Source: Betaproteobacteria bacterium (GTDB lineage Bacteria; Pseudomonadota; Gammaproteobacteria; Burkholderiales; SG8-41). Taken from it: 64,000 nucleotides of DNA. This document shows, one piece after another, positions 4,412 through 62,212 of this stretch. Under the pieces are notes generated by a model, which was not told where the DNA came from, did not search any database, and saw nothing but the letters and a program-made list of their open reading frames with translations. The position numbers were made by a program, and so were the translations under genes. The stretch is from positions 16,516-80,515 of the forward strand of contig JACPTK010000011.1 in the NCBI GenBank assembly GCA_016192825.1, in the 5' to 3' direction. Every line of letters starts with the position of its first letter. Within the stretch, counting starts at the first letter, position 1.

Positions 4412-4732
4412 TCATCGATAGCGGAGAGCGTCCATCAACTCCTCCACGATCGTTTCCGTATCACCACGCTCGGCGGCAGTCGCCACATGGGCGCGCAAAT
4501 GGCTCTCGAGGGTGATTCGGCCGGCCTTCTCCAGCGCACCTTGGACCGCCTGGATCTGGCGCAGCACGTCAACGCAATAGGTGTCGTGTCTTTGCAGGGC
4601 GCGCAAGATGCTTTCCAGGTGCCCCTTGGCGATGGCAAGCCTGTGCCCGACCACCTTGCGCGCGCTCTCCGGCATGCACAGGCGACCCTCGTGCCGATGC
4701 AGGGCATGCGCTCGAGTATTTTCGTCGCTCAT
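4412..4732 (-). CDS. csoR: CsoR/RcnR-family metal-sensing repressor (copy 1)
   Basis: 106 aa, DUF156-type helical protein with the C...H...C pattern (RLCMPE; HDTYCVDVLRQIQAVQGAL). A close paralogue lies at 38074..38394. Confidence 0.9.
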   Translation of the reverse strand: MSDENTRAHALHRHEGRLCMPESARKVVGHRLAIAKGHLESILRALQRHDTYCVDVLRQIQAVQGALEKAGRITLESHLRAHVATAAERGDTETIVEELMDALRYR

Positions 4733-4844
4733 GGCTAAGCCACCTCTCGATTAGCGTTGATCAGAAGCTGCAAATGTTGGTTGCGGGCCATCCCGTTCAC
4801 GGTCAGCATCATTGCCACATTGAACGCCTTTCCGAGACCACAGT

Positions 4845-4858
4845 TTGATCTATATCAA
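4845..4858. promoter_or_regulatory. FNR box TTGATctatATCAA
   Basis: Perfect consensus in the csoR / small-gene divergent region, directly abutting the CsoR-type dyad. Confidence 0.6.
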
Positions 4859-5242: not shown

Positions 5243-5412
5243 CAGCAAAACCGCCCGTGAATTTCGAATGAGCCCCGGTGTAACGGCCCCGATTGGCCTC
5301 CGATGGACACGCGCGCAGGCTGGAAATAAGGTTTTCACTGCTATTGACTCCCGTTATCGCGCGGGCGGTTTTGCACAAGGAGTTAGTCGGGGCTAAGTCC
5401 GACAAACTCCCA
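5233..5412 (+). mobile_element. MITE-like element, type A, 5'-truncated copy (A1)
   Basis: Near-identical by eye to 57436..57624, running from GGCTGCTAAC through AAAACCGCCC ... GGGCGGTTTT to the terminal hairpin GGAGTTAGTCGGggctaaGTCCGACAAACTCC. The left terminal hairpin is missing and the right CTAG has degenerated to CCAG. Confidence 0.6.
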
Positions 5413-24138: not shown

Positions 24139-26031
<1,893 letters not shown>

Positions 26032-26043
26032 GGTGTGTCCCGC

Positions 26044-28605: not shown

Positions 28606-29928
28606 CTATGCGCACGCCGGTCCCGCTGACGAGAGCATCGGGGCGATATGCGTGCGAATTACCTGGCCCCACGTGAATCTTGCGGCCGTCCTGCGCGCCT
28701 CGTGCCGTAATCGTGTCGCCAAGTCCGGGTGCTCGCGCAGATAAAGGAGATGCGCGACGAGCTCGTTTGGGCTGCTGGTCTGGAGCGAGATCGCATCGTG
28801 GCCGGGCGTGACATAGTCCTCACCCGTTGCGCCGACAAAGCTGAGCCCGCCGCAGGCCATCGCTTCCAGTCCGACCAGACCGAACGGTTCGATCCCGCTG
28901 TTGGCGAGTACCCCGTCGCTCGCCCGGTAAAGACACTGGAGTTGAGGCCACGACAGCGCGTTCTGGACGAACACGATGTCGCCTGGCGGTGCCGTTCCGA
29001 TGGCCCGGCAGAGCGCCGTGGCGCTGCTGTCGCCGCACGTGACGAAGGTCGCCTCGAGTCCGAGGGCCCGGGCGCGCGCAATGACTTCGCTGCCGTGCGC
29101 TTCGATACCGCCGCGCGCGACGAAAAGCGGCTGCAAGCCACGCGCTTTCAGATCGCCGACCGCATCGACGGCCATCAGCCAGCGTTTGTCGGGATCCCAG
29201 CGCGCCACCTTGGCGAGCAAAAGCCGTCCGCCGGTGAGCCGTTTCAGGGCATTCACCGCCTTGCGATCACACGGCTTGAGCCACTGCGTTGCAATTCCGT
29301 TCGGGATGACGCGCGGGTCGACCCCGACGCGCCACATCTGATGCTTCATGAAGCGGCTGACGCTCGTAATCGTCGCCGTTTCGCTCAACTCGCGCCAGGG
29401 CACGCGCTCGAAACCGAAGGTATTGTTTGCGTTCCAGAAAAAGCGCATGTGCTCGCCCCAGCCCCGTTCATGGGCGCGCCTGCTCAGGCGGACGATGCCC
29501 CAGCTCGTGTGCCACTCCTCGCCGATCACGACAACCGGGCGATGCGTGTGGATAAGCGCTGGCAGGAGATGTTCTTCCAGCCACGCCGGCAGAGATCGGT
29601 TCCAGTCCTCGAACTTTCCCTCTTCCCCGTCATACACGCCGCCCGCGTGATACCGGCTGATCCACTGGCACCAACGATGCAGATGAAGCTTCCCGCCGCA
29701 GCCGATCTCATGGCCGGGCAACTCGGGCGAGCCGATGAAGAACAAATGCGTCTCGTAGCCTTCCTCGGCCAGGGCGCAGGCGAGTCCGCTCACCCGCGCG
29801 CCCAGTCCACCAGCGCGCGAGTAGGCATCCGGCCCTTCGAAACTCAGAAGCACGAATGCCGGAGATGGACCTCGCTGCGAGAGCAGCGGGTCGACGGATG
29901 GAGGCCGGCCGATCGCATGCAGTTTCAT
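28606..29928 (-). CDS. GT4-family (group 1) glycosyltransferase
   Basis: N-terminal [18 protein letters not shown] and C-terminal E-x7-E region ([18 protein letters not shown]). Its start overlaps the stop of the FtsH relic. Confidence 0.75.
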
Positions 29929-31000
29929 GGTTTGCGCTCTTTCTGGGTTTTGCGCTTCGGCGACGCGAAGCTCGGATGGGTAAAGTAGAACGTCGCGTAC
30001 TCGCGGCGCTGAGCACCCGGCACGCGAAATTCCACGTCGATCACGAGGTTTGCGAGATCGCCCCCGGCGAATCCCGGTGTGCGCGCAGCAAGCGCGGAAA
30101 GATTCACCGACGGGGCGAGGGTGACCCCCTTGGCATGCACGCGCAGAATCTGCTCGCGCCCCTTGAGGTCCGGCCGGTCGATCGTCACGTGCCGGTCGAA
30201 CCGGCCCGGGCGGAGCAGGGCAGGATCGAGGATTTCCGGACGGTTGGTAGCGGCCATGATAATCACACCCTTGTTGGTGTCGAATCCGTCCATTTCGACC
30301 AGTAACTGGTTGAGGGTTTGCTCGCGCTCGTCGTGCCCGCCCATCACGTTCATGCCGCGCCCTTTGCCCAGCGCATCGAGCTCATCGATGAAGATGATGC
30401 ACGGCGCCATTTTTTCGGCCTGCTGGAAGAGGTCTCGCACGCGCGCGGCGCCCACGCCCACGAACATCTCCACAAATTCGGAACCGCTCATGGAAAAGAA
30501 TGGCACACTGGCTTCTCCCGCCACCGCCTTGGCGAGAAGCGTCTTGCCGGTTCCCGGCGCGCCCACCAGCAGCACGCCTTTTGGAATCTTGCCGCGGAGG
30601 CGGCGATAGCGATCGGGCGGCTTGAGGAACTCGACCACTTCCATTAACTCGGCCTTCGCCTCGTCGATGCCCGCGACGTCGGCAAACGTGACGCCGGTCT
30701 GCTTTTCCGTATAAACCTTCGCCTTGCTCTTGCCGATTTCCATCATGCCGCCGGCGGCGCCCATGCGCTTCATATTGAATCCCCACAGAGCGACGAATAT
30801 CACGGCCGGCACTATCCACGAGAGGATGGTGGCGAGCCACTTGTTCTCGAGTTGGCCGGAAAAACGTATCTTGGCGGCTTCAACGTCTTGAATCAGCGAA
30901 GGATCGTTGACGCGCACCGTGGTGAAGATGTGCGGGCCCGGATCAGCATCAGGAAAACCCCGATGAAGTACCAGATCGAAAACTGCTGTTTACGTTCCAT
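29925..31000 (-). pseudogene. decayed second FtsH copy (AAA module only)
   Basis: ATG at 31000 gives [19 protein letters not shown], then leaves frame. ORF 29925..30917 resumes at [10 protein letters not shown] and keeps GAPGTGKT and IIFIDELD. It diverges after [11 protein letters not shown] and lacks the HExxH protease domain. Confidence 0.75.
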
Positions 31001-38073: not shown

Positions 38074-38394
38074 TCATCGATAGCGAAGCGCGTCCATCAG
38101 TTCTTCCACCATCGTCTCCGCGTCGCCCCGCTCGGCTGCGGTCGCCACGTGCGCGCGCAAATGGCTTTCGAGCGTGATCTGACCGGCTTTCTCCAGGGCG
38201 CCCTGAACGGCCTTGATCTGGCGCAGCACGTCGACGCAATAGGTGTCGTGCTTTTCCAGGGCGTGCAAGATGCTTTCCAGGTGGCCCCTGGCGATGGCGA
38301 GCCGTCGTCTGACGACGCTGCGCGCAGCTTCCGGCATGCACAGGCGGCCGTCGTGCGGTTGCGGGGCGTGTATTTGAATGTTCGCGTCGCTCAT
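38074..38394 (-). CDS. csoR: CsoR/RcnR-family metal-sensing repressor (copy 2)
   Basis: 106 aa, collinear with 4412..4732 (RLCMPE, HDTYCVDVLRQIKAVQGAL). Confidence 0.9.
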   Translation of the reverse strand: MSDANIQIHAPQPHDGRLCMPEAARSVVRRRLAIARGHLESILHALEKHDTYCVDVLRQIKAVQGALEKAGQITLESHLRAHVATAAERGDAETMVEELMDALRYR

Positions 38395-38506
38395 TGTTGG
38401 TCCACTCCTCGATTAGGCTTGATTGGTCCTGGCAGGTCGATCGCGGTTCATCCGCTCGGCGGTCGGCGTCATAACCCTATTTAAACGCCTTTTTCGAGAT
38501 CACAGC

Positions 38507-38520
38507 TTGATCTAGATCAA
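38507..38520. promoter_or_regulatory. FNR box TTGATctagATCAA
   Basis: Perfect consensus, in the same position relative to the operator and -10 as in copy 1. Confidence 0.6.
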
Positions 38521-47753: not shown

Positions 47754-48221
47754 TCATCGCTGCTCGTACACCGAGCTGATGCCGAGTACGCTGAACAGCA
47801 TGACGCGGTAGGGCTCGCCCGGCATGTCCATTCCCGGGGCGCTCTTGGGCATGCCGGGCGCCGCGACGCCGGCACCCGGCGGGCGCTCGCGCAGCAGGCG
47901 CTTGATCGTATCCGCCGGCACGTGGCCTTCGATCACGTAACCGCCGGCCACCGCGGTGTGGCAGGAGCGCAGCGAGTCGGGTATCCGGAACTTGTCCTTG
48001 ATCGCGCTGACGTCGGACATGACGCGGGCGGTAACATTGAATCCGTTGCTGCGCAGGTGGCGATCCCAGCCCACGCAGCACCCGCAGGTCGGAGTTTCGT
48101 AAACGGTGATGCCCTGTGCGGCTGCTGGTGCACCAATCGGCCCAGCCGCCAGTGCGACAGCCAGCGCGATCGGCCAGATCCGTTCGCGTCCATCGTTGCC
48201 GTGACCAATCATGTCCGTCAC
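47754..48221 (-). CDS. DUF411 (CopG-like) periplasmic metal-binding protein, intact
   Basis: Signal peptide, VYETPTCGCCVGW, SCHTAV, GYVIEGHVP, APGMPKSAPGM. Confidence 0.85.
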   Translation of the reverse strand: MTDMIGHGNDGRERIWPIALAVALAAGPIGAPAAAQGITVYETPTCGCCVGWDRHLRSNGFNVTARVMSDVSAIKDKFRIPDSLRSCHTAVAGGYVIEGHVPADTIKRLLRERPPGAGVAAPGMPKSAPGMDMPGEPYRVMLFSVLGISSVYEQR

Positions 48222-57195: not shown

Positions 57196-57209
57196 TTGAT
57201 GTAGATCAA
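57196..57209. promoter_or_regulatory. FNR box TTGATgtagATCAA
   Basis: Perfect consensus, intergenic, upstream of 56759..57127. Confidence 0.55.
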
Positions 57210-57413: not shown

Positions 57414-57624
57414 CTAGCAGCCTGCCGGACTTAGGTGTCCGACAGGCTGCTAACGGCAAAACCGCCCGTGAATTTCGAATGAGCCCCGGTGTAACGGCCC
57501 CGATCGGCCTCCGATGGACACGCGCGCAGGCTGGAAATAAGGTTTTCACTGCTATTGGCTCCCGTTATCGCGCGGGCGGTTTTGCACAAGGAGTTTGTCG
57601 GGGCTAAGTCCGACAAACTCCTAG
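57414..57624 (+). mobile_element. MITE-like element, type A, full copy (A2)
   Basis: CTAG-GCAGCCTGCCGGAC-ttaggt-GTCCGACAGGCTGC hairpin, AAAACCGCCCG ... about 105-nt core ... CGGGCGGTTTT, then hairpin GGAGTTTGTCGGggctaaGTCCGACAAACTCC-TAG. Both ends are CTAG. The right CTAG contains the stop codon of the DUF411 gene. Confidence 0.65.
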
Positions 57625-58067
57625 CGGCCGTATCGCGCATACACGCGATAATTTCCGTCGGGGAGAACCAGGTGCACATCGTAAGGGGCGCCGCGGTGGC
57701 CTTCCATCCCGGGAGAGCCGGCCGGCATGCCCGCTACCGCCAGTCCGCGCGCCTTGGGCCGCTCGGCGAGCAGCCGCCTGATCTCGCGCGCCGGCACGTG
57801 GCCCTCGACCGCGTAACCCTCGTTGACGGCGGTATGGCAGCCTCCGAGGACGTTCGGTATGCCATAACGGGCCCGGTAAACCTCCGGGTTCGACACATTC
57901 TGAGGCTTCACACGGAAGCCGTTTGCCCGCAGATGCTCGATCCACGAGCCGCAACAGCCTCAGGTCGCGCTCTTGTAGACGGTGACGAAATCCTCGGCGG
58001 CGTACGCCGAATACACGGCGGGGAGGGAAGTTGCGAGAACTGCGAGCAGGAATTGCCGTCGCTTCAT
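57621..58067 (-). CDS. DUF411 (CopG-like) protein interrupted by one in-frame TGA at the first Cys of CxCC (selenocysteine candidate or pseudogene)
   Basis: From ATG 58067: MKRRQFLLAVLATSLPAVYSAYAAEDFVTVYKSAT-TGA(57960..57962)-GCCGSWIEHLRANGF. It continues in the same frame into ORF 57621..57911 (GCHTAV, GYAVEGHVP, AGMPAGSPGM). The paralogue at 47754..48221 has TCGCC here. Confidence 0.55.
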
Positions 58068-58217
58068 TTCAAAAGCTCCTTTTCAGAAATATTCCGGTGC
58101 CCGTTCGTTGGATACCGATCCGTCGCCGCGAGTTCCGGCTGCGTTGACGGCTCACGCCCGCTTGCCCCATGCGATCGCCGACGTTCCACATACTAATGGT
58201 CGCATGCCGGGGTAGCC

Positions 58218-58231
58218 TTGATTCACATCAA
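58218..58231. promoter_or_regulatory. FNR box TTGATtcacATCAA
   Basis: Perfect consensus, intergenic. Its centre lies about 157 nt upstream of the 58067 start codon. Confidence 0.5.
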
Positions 58232-58277: not shown

Positions 58278-58766
58278 TCAGCGCCGAAGCGAGTCCCGGG
58301 TGATGTCGGCTTGCGCGCGTCGGATCTTCTCGGGCCATGAACTCTTGATGAAGGCAAGAACCGCCCAGATTTCGTCGTCGGAAAGCGTGCCGCCGAAGGC
58401 AGGCATGTCGCTCTGGTAGTTAGGGGGAGCGTACCTGCCGGGAACGAGGCCCTGCCGGGTGATGCCGAACAGCACCGCATCCGGGTGATGCCAGGTGTGT
58501 CCGGACGCGTCGTGCGGCGGAGCGGGCATGCGGCCGGTCGGCAGTTTTTCCCGCCAGTCGGGCTGGCCTTGGAGCCCGGCGCCGTGGCAGGCCGCGCAAT
58601 GCCGCGCGTAGACGGGCTTGCCGCGGGCGACTTGCGCCGCATCCCCCGGGTCGGCACGGGGCTTTTCCTCCGAGAACTGCGCGTAGATGATCGCGCCGAC
58701 GAGAAACGCAAAAGAAGCCGCCAGGAATCCGACGCCGATCCGGTTACGGGTGTCTTGTTGTACCAT
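58278..58766 (-). CDS. membrane-anchored monohaem c-type cytochrome
   Basis: N-terminal TM, then GKPVYARHCAACHGAGLQG (CxxCH) and a distal DMPAFG Met ligand region. Confidence 0.8.
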   Translation of the reverse strand: MVQQDTRNRIGVGFLAASFAFLVGAIIYAQFSEEKPRADPGDAAQVARGKPVYARHCAACHGAGLQGQPDWREKLPTGRMPAPPHDASGHTWHHPDAVLFGITRQGLVPGRYAPPNYQSDMPAFGGTLSDDEIWAVLAFIKSSWPEKIRRAQADITRDSLRR

Positions 58767-62003: not shown

Positions 62004-62212
62004 CTAGCAGCCTGTCGGACTTGGCATTCCGACAGGCTGCTCACAGCAAAACCGCCCCACTTTTTTTGAATAACGTTCAATTCCACGGTCGATTCACCTC
62101 GGGAAACGCGTACGGATGGTGTTTCGGCAGGTTTTTGATGGCACTTTCGCATTATTATCCAGGGCGGTTTTGCCTAAGGAGCTTGTCGGACCCAAGTCCG
62201 ACAAGCTCCTAG
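62004..62212 (+). mobile_element. MITE-like element, type B, full copy (B2)
   Basis: CTAG-GCAGCCTGTCGGAC-loop-CCGACAGGCTGC, AAAACCGCCCC ... about 115-nt core ... GGGCGGTTTTGC, then GGAGCTTGTCGGACccaaGTCCGACAAGCTCC-TAG. The right CTAG (62209..62212) contains the stop codon of the L,D-transpeptidase gene. Confidence 0.65.

Follow-up and report, generated by a model that had tools for sequence, protein, structure and literature searches.

A predicted selenocysteine-containing form of the copper protein CopG (DUF411) encoded in a betaproteobacterial metal-resistance island

We analyzed a 64-kb stretch of DNA from a Betaproteobacteria bacterium (contig JACPTK010000011.1; "the window" below means this whole stretch), in which a gene of the CopG/DUF411 family is interrupted by a single in-frame UGA, placed exactly on the codon for the first cysteine (Cys) of the CxCC copper-cluster motif. 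The comparison of this gene with its relatives argues that the UGA-containing form of CopG/DUF411 is very probably a genuine selenoprotein family, which forms a pair with the Cys-containing form and carries a bacterial selenocysteine insertion sequence (SECIS) inside the open reading frame (ORF). The copy in the window itself is probably expressed as a selenoprotein in its host. In addition, it seems reasonably likely that the selenocysteine (Sec) forms make up an uncatalogued and widespread selenoprotein family of Burkholderiales, Gemmatimonadota and Acidobacteriota, periplasmic and under FNR control, in which Sec would ligate a multinuclear copper cluster.

The UGA codon in the window gene and its relatives

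The window gene is a member of the CopG/DUF411 family by every sequence criterion tested. It matched PF04214 (DUF411) with 87.3 bits, against a Pfam cut-off of 27, and no other Pfam family. A phmmer comparison with the Pseudomonas aeruginosa CopG structure (6WIS_A) aligned 119 residues spanning the mature domain, 28-146 of the window protein with 5-123 of CopG (E=6.3e-28), and in this alignment the UGA codon falls on the first Cys of N-C-G-C-C. Both the cluster motif, as U-G-C-C with Sec proposed for the first Cys, and the Met-rich GMPAGSPGM were found. The translation from 58067 to 57621 on the minus strand reads MKRRQFLLAVLATSLPAVYSAYAAEDFVTVYKSAT-UGA-GCCGSWIEHLRANGF...GCHTAV...EGHVP...GMPAGSPGM...YARYGR up to the terminal stop, the residues directly after the UGA being GCCGSW. 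An earlier reading of the sequence alone had described a gene otherwise intact from its ATG with this lone TGA, and it was right in every coordinate: there is one internal stop and no frameshift. The same reading had pointed to an intact paralogue in the window with a Cys at the UGA position, and T-C-G-C-C indeed stands there. The two genes are 46% identical, and their presence in the same island provides an internal comparison of the Sec and Cys forms.

The genetic code in the window is standard, with TGA ending 29 of the 37 confident ORFs, including the cytochrome c gene immediately upstream of the DUF411 gene (stop 58280..58278). Because TGA is a normal stop in the window, decoding of the internal one must depend on a local signal. 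The 48 nt starting at the terminal TGA stops folded with a mean of -11.2 kcal/mol, compared with -23.7 kcal/mol for the region of the internal UGA. A scan for other TGA-interrupted genes based on GC content at third codon positions was abandoned as too noisy in DNA of such high GC content; it overlooked even the DUF411 gene itself and picked up nothing but normal junctions between genes.

Protein relatives were sought in a 5.8-billion-protein collection, and the DNA of 160 related loci was fetched from species-representative genomes and metagenomes, the homologous codon being located in 146 of them. This codon was TGC in 93 loci, TGT in 17, TGA in 35 and TGG in one, and a further locus (L164) also had TGA. 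The idea of the sequence-only reading, that a UGA aligned with a Cys of a homologue marks a selenoprotein, is thus supported by the recurrence of the codon, together with the conserved hairpin described below. The closest protein matches (79-92% identity) were all gene calls of 96-107 amino acids that start just past the TGA position, and full-length protein relatives were at most 68% identical to the window gene. The nearest relatives (92% and 88% identical) share the layout of the window gene. In a neighbor-joining tree of the domain after the codon, the window gene lies in a clade of 27 loci (members 65-82% identical to the window) that contains 26 TGA codons, one TGG (L086) and no Cys form, and 6-8 other TGA lineages are scattered among the Cys forms, including metagenome-assembled genomes (MAGs) of Gemmatimonadota (L024), Acidobacteriota (L038) and Vicinamibacterales (L066). 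The TGA loci stem from many independent sequencing projects; the groundwater MAG JACQGN01 is 81% identical at the DUF411 gene and shares neighboring genes.

All of the TGA loci have a frame that is open upstream into a signal-peptide-like N-terminus, with the strand-1 motif x-V-Y-K/L at a fixed distance before the TGA and G-C-C after it. In the Sec forms Val at -6 is 96% and Tyr at -5 100% conserved, as in the Cys forms, and G-C-C at +1 to +3 is invariant. Downstream of the UGA, the ratio of nonsynonymous to synonymous substitution rates (dN/dS) against relatives is 0.11-0.25, which shows purifying selection on the part of the gene beyond the stop.

Two apparent tryptophan variants were rejected. 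The protein P0013, with a "W" at the Sec position and the annotation "Cu/Ag efflux protein CusF", comes from locus L164 (JGI Ga0534148_0266498, 155-919), where the DNA has TGA; the gene caller had read both the Sec codon and the real stop as Trp, so that the call runs past the real TGA into the next gene. Other "fusions" of PF11604 and PF04214 among the matches may be the same artefact (P0003, P0040, P0044, P0066, P0079, P0085 and P0116). In the other, L086 (2400-2560), the Sec/Cys codon reads TGG, as in no other relative; a deletion that abuts the upstream cytochrome c gene has removed the signal peptide and strand 1, and the SECIS-like hairpin is retained. L086 is therefore not an intact Trp form but the decayed remnant of a Sec form, showing how real decay looks in this family. 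The plasmid collection yielded no member of the Sec clade, its best match being a Cys form with 61% identity, and a megablast search with the region gave no matches. One TGA form, L004 (CAZOQY010000100.1), is typically betaproteobacterial in sequence, with 68% identity to the window, and belongs to a MAG labelled "uncultured Streptomycetaceae"; this contig is probably misbinned.

A conserved hairpin downstream of the UGA

The window RNA can form a hairpin that starts 11 nt past the UGA and is predicted to be the core of a bacterial SECIS (Table 1). The published model of bacterial SECIS elements, which differ widely between families, specifies a loop of 3-9 nt with G in position 1 or 2, a stem of 4-16 bp, a spacing of 16-37 nt between the UGA and the loop, and a minimum free energy (MFE) of -7.5 kcal/mol or lower (PMC13188914). 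The window hairpin lies within every one of these limits, with a 5-nt loop bearing G at position 2, a 10-bp stem, an apical loop 20 nt past the UGA and -11.6 kcal/mol (-13.0 in sequence context). Across the family the conserved stem has 10-11 bp and the distance from the UGA to the loop is 17-21 nt, and throughout the main clade the 48 nt from the UGA folded into this same hairpin. The commoner loop dinucleotide, G followed by G or U, is not in the window copy; it is present in L024, L134 and L139 (loop GGU).

The hairpin distinguishes the Sec forms from the Cys forms. The published criteria were passed by 24 of the 33 distinct Sec sequences versus 5 of the 105 Cys sequences. When the family structure was imposed, the inner stem was paired to 86.5% in the Sec forms and to 57.9% in the Cys forms, the median stem energies were -15.0 and +1.0 kcal/mol, respectively, and at least 90% of the stem pairs formed in 26/33 Sec versus 1/105 Cys sequences. 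MFE alone was rejected as a discriminator, since folding just as strong occurs in some Cys forms and in the paralogue of the window.

The stem also shows compensatory changes. Alignment columns 16 and 36 pair as GC (15), UG (8), UA (2) or AU (1), so that an Ala/Ser/Thr codon and the Arg codon five codons after it vary together, the former in its first base and the latter in its synonymous third base; columns 22 and 30 pair as AU (20) or GC (6), and columns 14 and 38 as GC (27) or AU (1). The covariation score was above those of all 500 column shuffles and of all slid registers. Separate lineages place a hairpin of different sequence at the same site, as in L024 (GGUGAGUG-GGU-CACUCACC) and L104 (GACACGUGGAU...AUCUGCGUGUC). 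In addition, synonymous codon diversity is reduced in codons +1 to +15 (0.66 bits, versus 1.20 elsewhere in the gene; p=0.002). A possible lower stem around the core, in which the UGA itself is paired, is formed to 92.6% in the Sec forms and does not discriminate, because it is also 77.6% paired in the Cys forms.

The stem-loop drawn by the sequence-only reading can be formed by this sequence, but its inner stem (GCUCG paired with CGAGC around UGGAU) is not the conserved register: this earlier register was paired in 63% of the cells across the orthologues, in only a subset of them, and did no better than shuffles. The accompanying worry that the apical loop has no obvious GU disappears with the conserved register, whose loop CGAGC has G at position 2. 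The comparison of orthologues, suggested at the same time as a check, came out in favor of a selenoprotein, since the closest relatives carry TGA rather than TGC or TGT and a hairpin at SECIS distance, with compensatory changes, that is largely absent from the Cys forms.

Proposed expression and rival explanations

The sequence features suggest the following course of expression. Translation would start at ATG 58067, which a good Shine-Dalgarno sequence precedes, and the hairpin at 57949..57925 would act as a bacterial SECIS and recruit SelB-GTP-Sec-tRNA(Sec), with Sec being inserted at codon 36 and no termination there. The 148-residue pre-protein would then be exported, for which the RRQFL motif suggests the twin-arginine translocation (Tat) route, leaving a mature protein of about 125 residues. 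A selenoprotein exported by this route would need to fold, and perhaps to bind its metal, in the cytoplasm. Twin-arginine motifs (RRQF, RRTF, RRAF) are common in the signal peptides of the subfamily (the window gene, L001, L004, L005, L009, L010 and L092), and those of L003 and L093 look like Sec-type (secretory) rather than twin-arginine signals. By homology with P. aeruginosa CopG, the protein would bind a multinuclear copper cluster through U/C-x-C-C and the Met-rich GMPAGSPGM, a selenolate would replace one thiolate of the cluster, and the protein would handle or redox-cycle Cu(I)/Cu(II).

The gene is probably expressed at low oxygen, under an FNR-type regulator that acts through the box at 58218..58231. 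This box had already been reported from the sequence alone as a perfect match, which proved exact, and the nearest Sec orthologues share it: 9/30 Sec loci, versus 1/104 Cys loci, have an FNR box 167-265 nt before the Sec codon, and these nine are the loci most closely related to the window. According to published work, CopG aids copper resistance anaerobically and holds a tetranuclear Cu cluster via CxCC and two Met (PMC7558416), and an FNR-driven Sec form would fit this picture.

Several observations weigh against the Sec interpretation. Of the 33 Sec sequences, 9 fail the strict ungapped SECIS test, and strong hairpins are also found in a minority of the Cys forms. Among these is the Cys paralogue of the window, which folds right after its TGC (-25.4 kcal/mol for 48 nt) into a hairpin of 14 bp with one bulge and a G-first loop (GAUCG) 18 nt from the TGC; this could be a SECIS left over from an ancestral Sec state, or a product of chance in the GC-rich stretch GCUGCUGC...GCAGC. 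The independent compensatory events number only about 3-5, because many of the covarying sequences are related. RNAalifold gave a weak consensus over the 33 Sec sequences (-2.4 kcal/mol), because distant lineages use different sequences, and an explicit structure with controls was used instead. Rfam searches of the whole window at the gathering thresholds and of 57600..58100 at a permissive setting returned no relevant match. In the 11 codons that precede the UGA, a stretch too short for anything but a noisy estimate, dN/dS does not lie clearly below 1, and upstream of the UGA coding conservation shows only in the V-Y motif and in a frame that stays open into the predicted signal peptide. Lastly, neither the 64-kb window nor the fetched locus flanks yielded selA, selB, selD or tRNA-Sec, the search for tRNA-Sec covering the window and all 164 loci, and the host might lack the Sec machinery because the gene sits in a transfer-prone metal island.

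This last point feeds the main residual rival, since the sel genes were found in neither the window nor the locus flanks, which are the parts searched. The family would then have Sec forms, but the window copy would be dead, transferred within a mobile-looking resistance island into a host without Sec machinery, where translation stops after 35 residues and the intact Cys paralogue could cover the function. We consider this unlikely, as the window copy has not decayed any further: it has no frameshift, and its Shine-Dalgarno sequence, predicted signal peptide, predicted SECIS, motifs and FNR box are intact. Its nearest relatives (92% and 88%) have the same arrangement and the sequence downstream of the UGA is under constraint, while the real remnant L086 looks quite different.

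The UGA might also be recoded without selenium. Hairpins downstream of stop codons can promote read-through, and near-cognate decoding (Trp, Cys or Arg) stimulated by the hairpin would give a low level of selenium-free full-length protein. The position of the UGA exactly on the metal-ligand Cys, as in known selenoproteins, and the bacterial SECIS geometry of the hairpin with its small G-containing loop speak against this; moreover, Trp or Arg at a cluster ligand is expected to destroy the site, and no intact TGG form exists, the "W" of P0013 being a gene-caller artefact. Such read-through is thus quite improbable as the explanation. There is even less to be said for an ordinary nonsense pseudogene, or for a genuine stop with a separately translated ORF behind it (e.g. 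from GTG 57911, the first in-frame start after the UGA), which we regard as hardly credible. TGC becomes TGA by a single substitution, and gene callers do annotate a downstream ORF of 96-107 amino acids, but 36 diverged sequences, drawn from several phyla, share this TGA, and G-C-C-G-[AS]-W, which lies between the UGA and any possible restart, is conserved as protein. The restart codon is not conserved, no Shine-Dalgarno sequence was found before GTG 57911, and the restart product would have neither the signal peptide nor the metal motif. Insertion of Sec at the UGA therefore remains our preferred explanation.

Metal island, significance and known systems

The window is a copper/heavy-metal resistance island. 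Its genes encode a Crp/FNR-type regulator, a two-component system, a cupredoxin, two DsbD-type membrane proteins, CcmF/H, a multicopper oxidase, a YHS/HMBD P-type ATPase, a redoxin, a CMD/AhpD-like protein, a cytochrome c, a DsbG-like protein and two CsoR-like repressors, and most of the large ORFs have clean Pfam matches. The Sec orthologues elsewhere adjoin P-type ATPase, cytochrome c, YHS or DUF302 genes. The coordinates of the features are collected in Table 1.

Table 1 Features of the window discussed in the text (strand given where it applies)
Feature	Position	Strand	Remarks
Sec-containing DUF411/CopG pre-protein, proposed coding sequence	57621..58067	-	148 codons; codon 36 UGA, proposed as Sec; stop TAG 57623..57621
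UGA, proposed Sec codon	57962..57960	-	first position of U-G-C-C (CxCC) copper-cluster motif
Predicted bacterial SECIS core	57925..57949	-	stem 57949..57940/57934..57925, 10 bp; loop CGAGC 57939..57935
Possible lower stem around SECIS core	57915..57961	-	GAGGCUG 57961..57955 pairs with CGGCUUC 57921..57915; UGA itself paired
Shine-Dalgarno AGGAG	58080..58076	-	8 nt before ATG 58067
Predicted signal peptide MKRRQFLLAVLATSLPAVYSAYA	57999..58067	-	by eye; twin-arginine-like RRQFL, A-x-A cleavage site
FNR/CRP-type box TTGAT-N4-ATCAA, TTGATTCACATCAA	58218..58231		perfect; in the 210-nt gap between cytochrome c gene and CopG start
Intact DUF411 paralogue, Cys form	47754..48221	-	...ITVYETPTCGCCVGW...; T-C-G-C-C at UGA-equivalent site; PF04214 82.3 bits
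12-bp perfect inverted repeat GGAGTTTGTCGG-ACTTAGC-CCGACAAACTCC	57590..57620	-	directly 3' of DUF411 stop codon; no T tract
Perfect FNR/CRP-type boxes	823-836, 4845-4858, 38507-38520, 57196-57209, 58218-58231
One-mismatch FNR/CRP-type boxes	13754, 22310, 36911, 37495

FNR boxes with at most one mismatch are strongly enriched in the window (9, versus 0.66 expected), and a single FNR-type (low-oxygen) regulon may take in the entire metal island. One of the boxes sits at the start of the gene for the Crp/FNR-family regulator (802-1602). Two paralogous CsoR/RcnR-like repressors, at 4412-4750 and 38074-38412 on the minus strand, are 85% identical over their last 95 residues, and a perfect FNR-type box precedes each of the two stop-to-stop ORFs by about 95 nt.

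The inverted repeat behind the DUF411 gene lies within an intergenic element of about 82 nt (57540..57621), of which a second copy is found at 5329-5410 (97.6% identical) and a third, partial one at 62162-62212 (86%). The element looks like a repetitive extragenic palindromic (REP)/terminator-like element or a small mobile element, and the inverted repeat, which a terminator scan did not call, is probably a terminator or REP-like element. The only candidate pseudogene met in the window is an FtsH-like segment at 29925-30989 on the minus strand (354 codons from stop to stop), whose translation reads like another FtsH reduced to its N-terminal and AAA portions; it may be a truncated or frameshifted copy, an intact FtsH being encoded at 24139-26043.

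If the interpretation holds, it adds a family to the prokaryotic selenoproteome and places selenium in a copper cluster. To our knowledge, proven natural ligation of a metal by Sec is limited to Mo/W in formate dehydrogenases and Ni in [NiFeSe] hydrogenases, and we know of no natural protein with a Se-Cu cluster that would precede Sec-CopG. Such a Cu-Se cluster would be new bioinorganic chemistry and would make it possible to ask directly whether Sec takes the place of Cys at soft-metal sites for its affinity, its redox potential or its resistance to over-oxidation. It would also link the availability and use of selenium to anaerobic copper tolerance in bacteria of anoxic soil and groundwater. 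On the practical side, an annotation error is corrected for genes that are now called as fragments of 96-107 amino acids, as pseudogenes or, through code-4 read-through, as false CusF fusions (P0013).

The sequence-only reading knew of no place for DUF411 among the established selenoprotein families, and the literature searched agrees. DUF411, PF04214, CopG and UxCC are absent from a catalogue of May 2026 that lists 119 families and subfamilies of prokaryotic selenoproteins (PMC13188914), and also from a 2022 review and the deep-Sep supplementary lists, although an earlier listing in another supplement is possible. Our search found no literature pairing DUF411 with selenocysteine, and NCBIfam has no model for the DUF411 family.

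The closest known system is P. aeruginosa CopG (PF04214; 6WIS/6WJE), with which the window protein shares x-C-C, GCHTAV, EGHVP and GMPxGSPGM, as well as a copper-resistance neighborhood with a P-type ATPase, a multicopper oxidase and a cytochrome c; to the eye, its N-terminus resembles a signal peptide of the Tat type. Unlike CopG, the window gene has a UGA for the first Cys of CxCC, a predicted SECIS inside the coding sequence and an FNR box that is conserved upstream in its subclade. Metal-handling selenoproteins have been predicted before, namely a cation-transporting P-type ATPase (UxxC), a CopZ-like 2Fe-2S-binding protein (GxUC, CU) and an SO_0444 Cu/Zn efflux transporter (UxC) (PMC13188914), in addition to YHS-domain, MerT-like and mercuric-reductase-like proteins (PMC13188914 Table 1). 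Like these, all of which are computational predictions, the window protein would have Sec in place of a metal-ligand Cys, belongs to heavy-metal resistance and has an in-frame candidate bacterial SECIS after the UGA, but it differs from them in fold, family and motif (UxCC), and its site would hold a multinuclear copper cluster rather than being a mononuclear CxxC site. It also resembles the periplasmic DsbA-like, DsbG-like and thioredoxin-like Sec.1/Sec.2 (PF13192) selenoproteins, being a predicted exported protein related to the thioredoxin fold with the proposed Sec in an N-terminal motif after strand 1; those proteins have redox motifs (UxxC, CxU, UxC) and belong to other Pfam families, whereas the window protein matches PF04214 only and has the ligand set of a metal cluster. 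Finally, the hairpin is comparable to the SECIS elements of Escherichia coli fdhF and fdnG, in that a stem-loop directly follows the UGA inside the reading frame and bears, at a set spacing, a small apical loop containing G. The minimal fdhF SECIS element lies 11 nt after the UGA, and the window stem likewise begins 11 nt after it. Unlike the fdhF and fdnG elements, with which it has no sequence similarity, the hairpin of this family has a loop CGAGC or GAU instead of GGUC and no evident bulged U.

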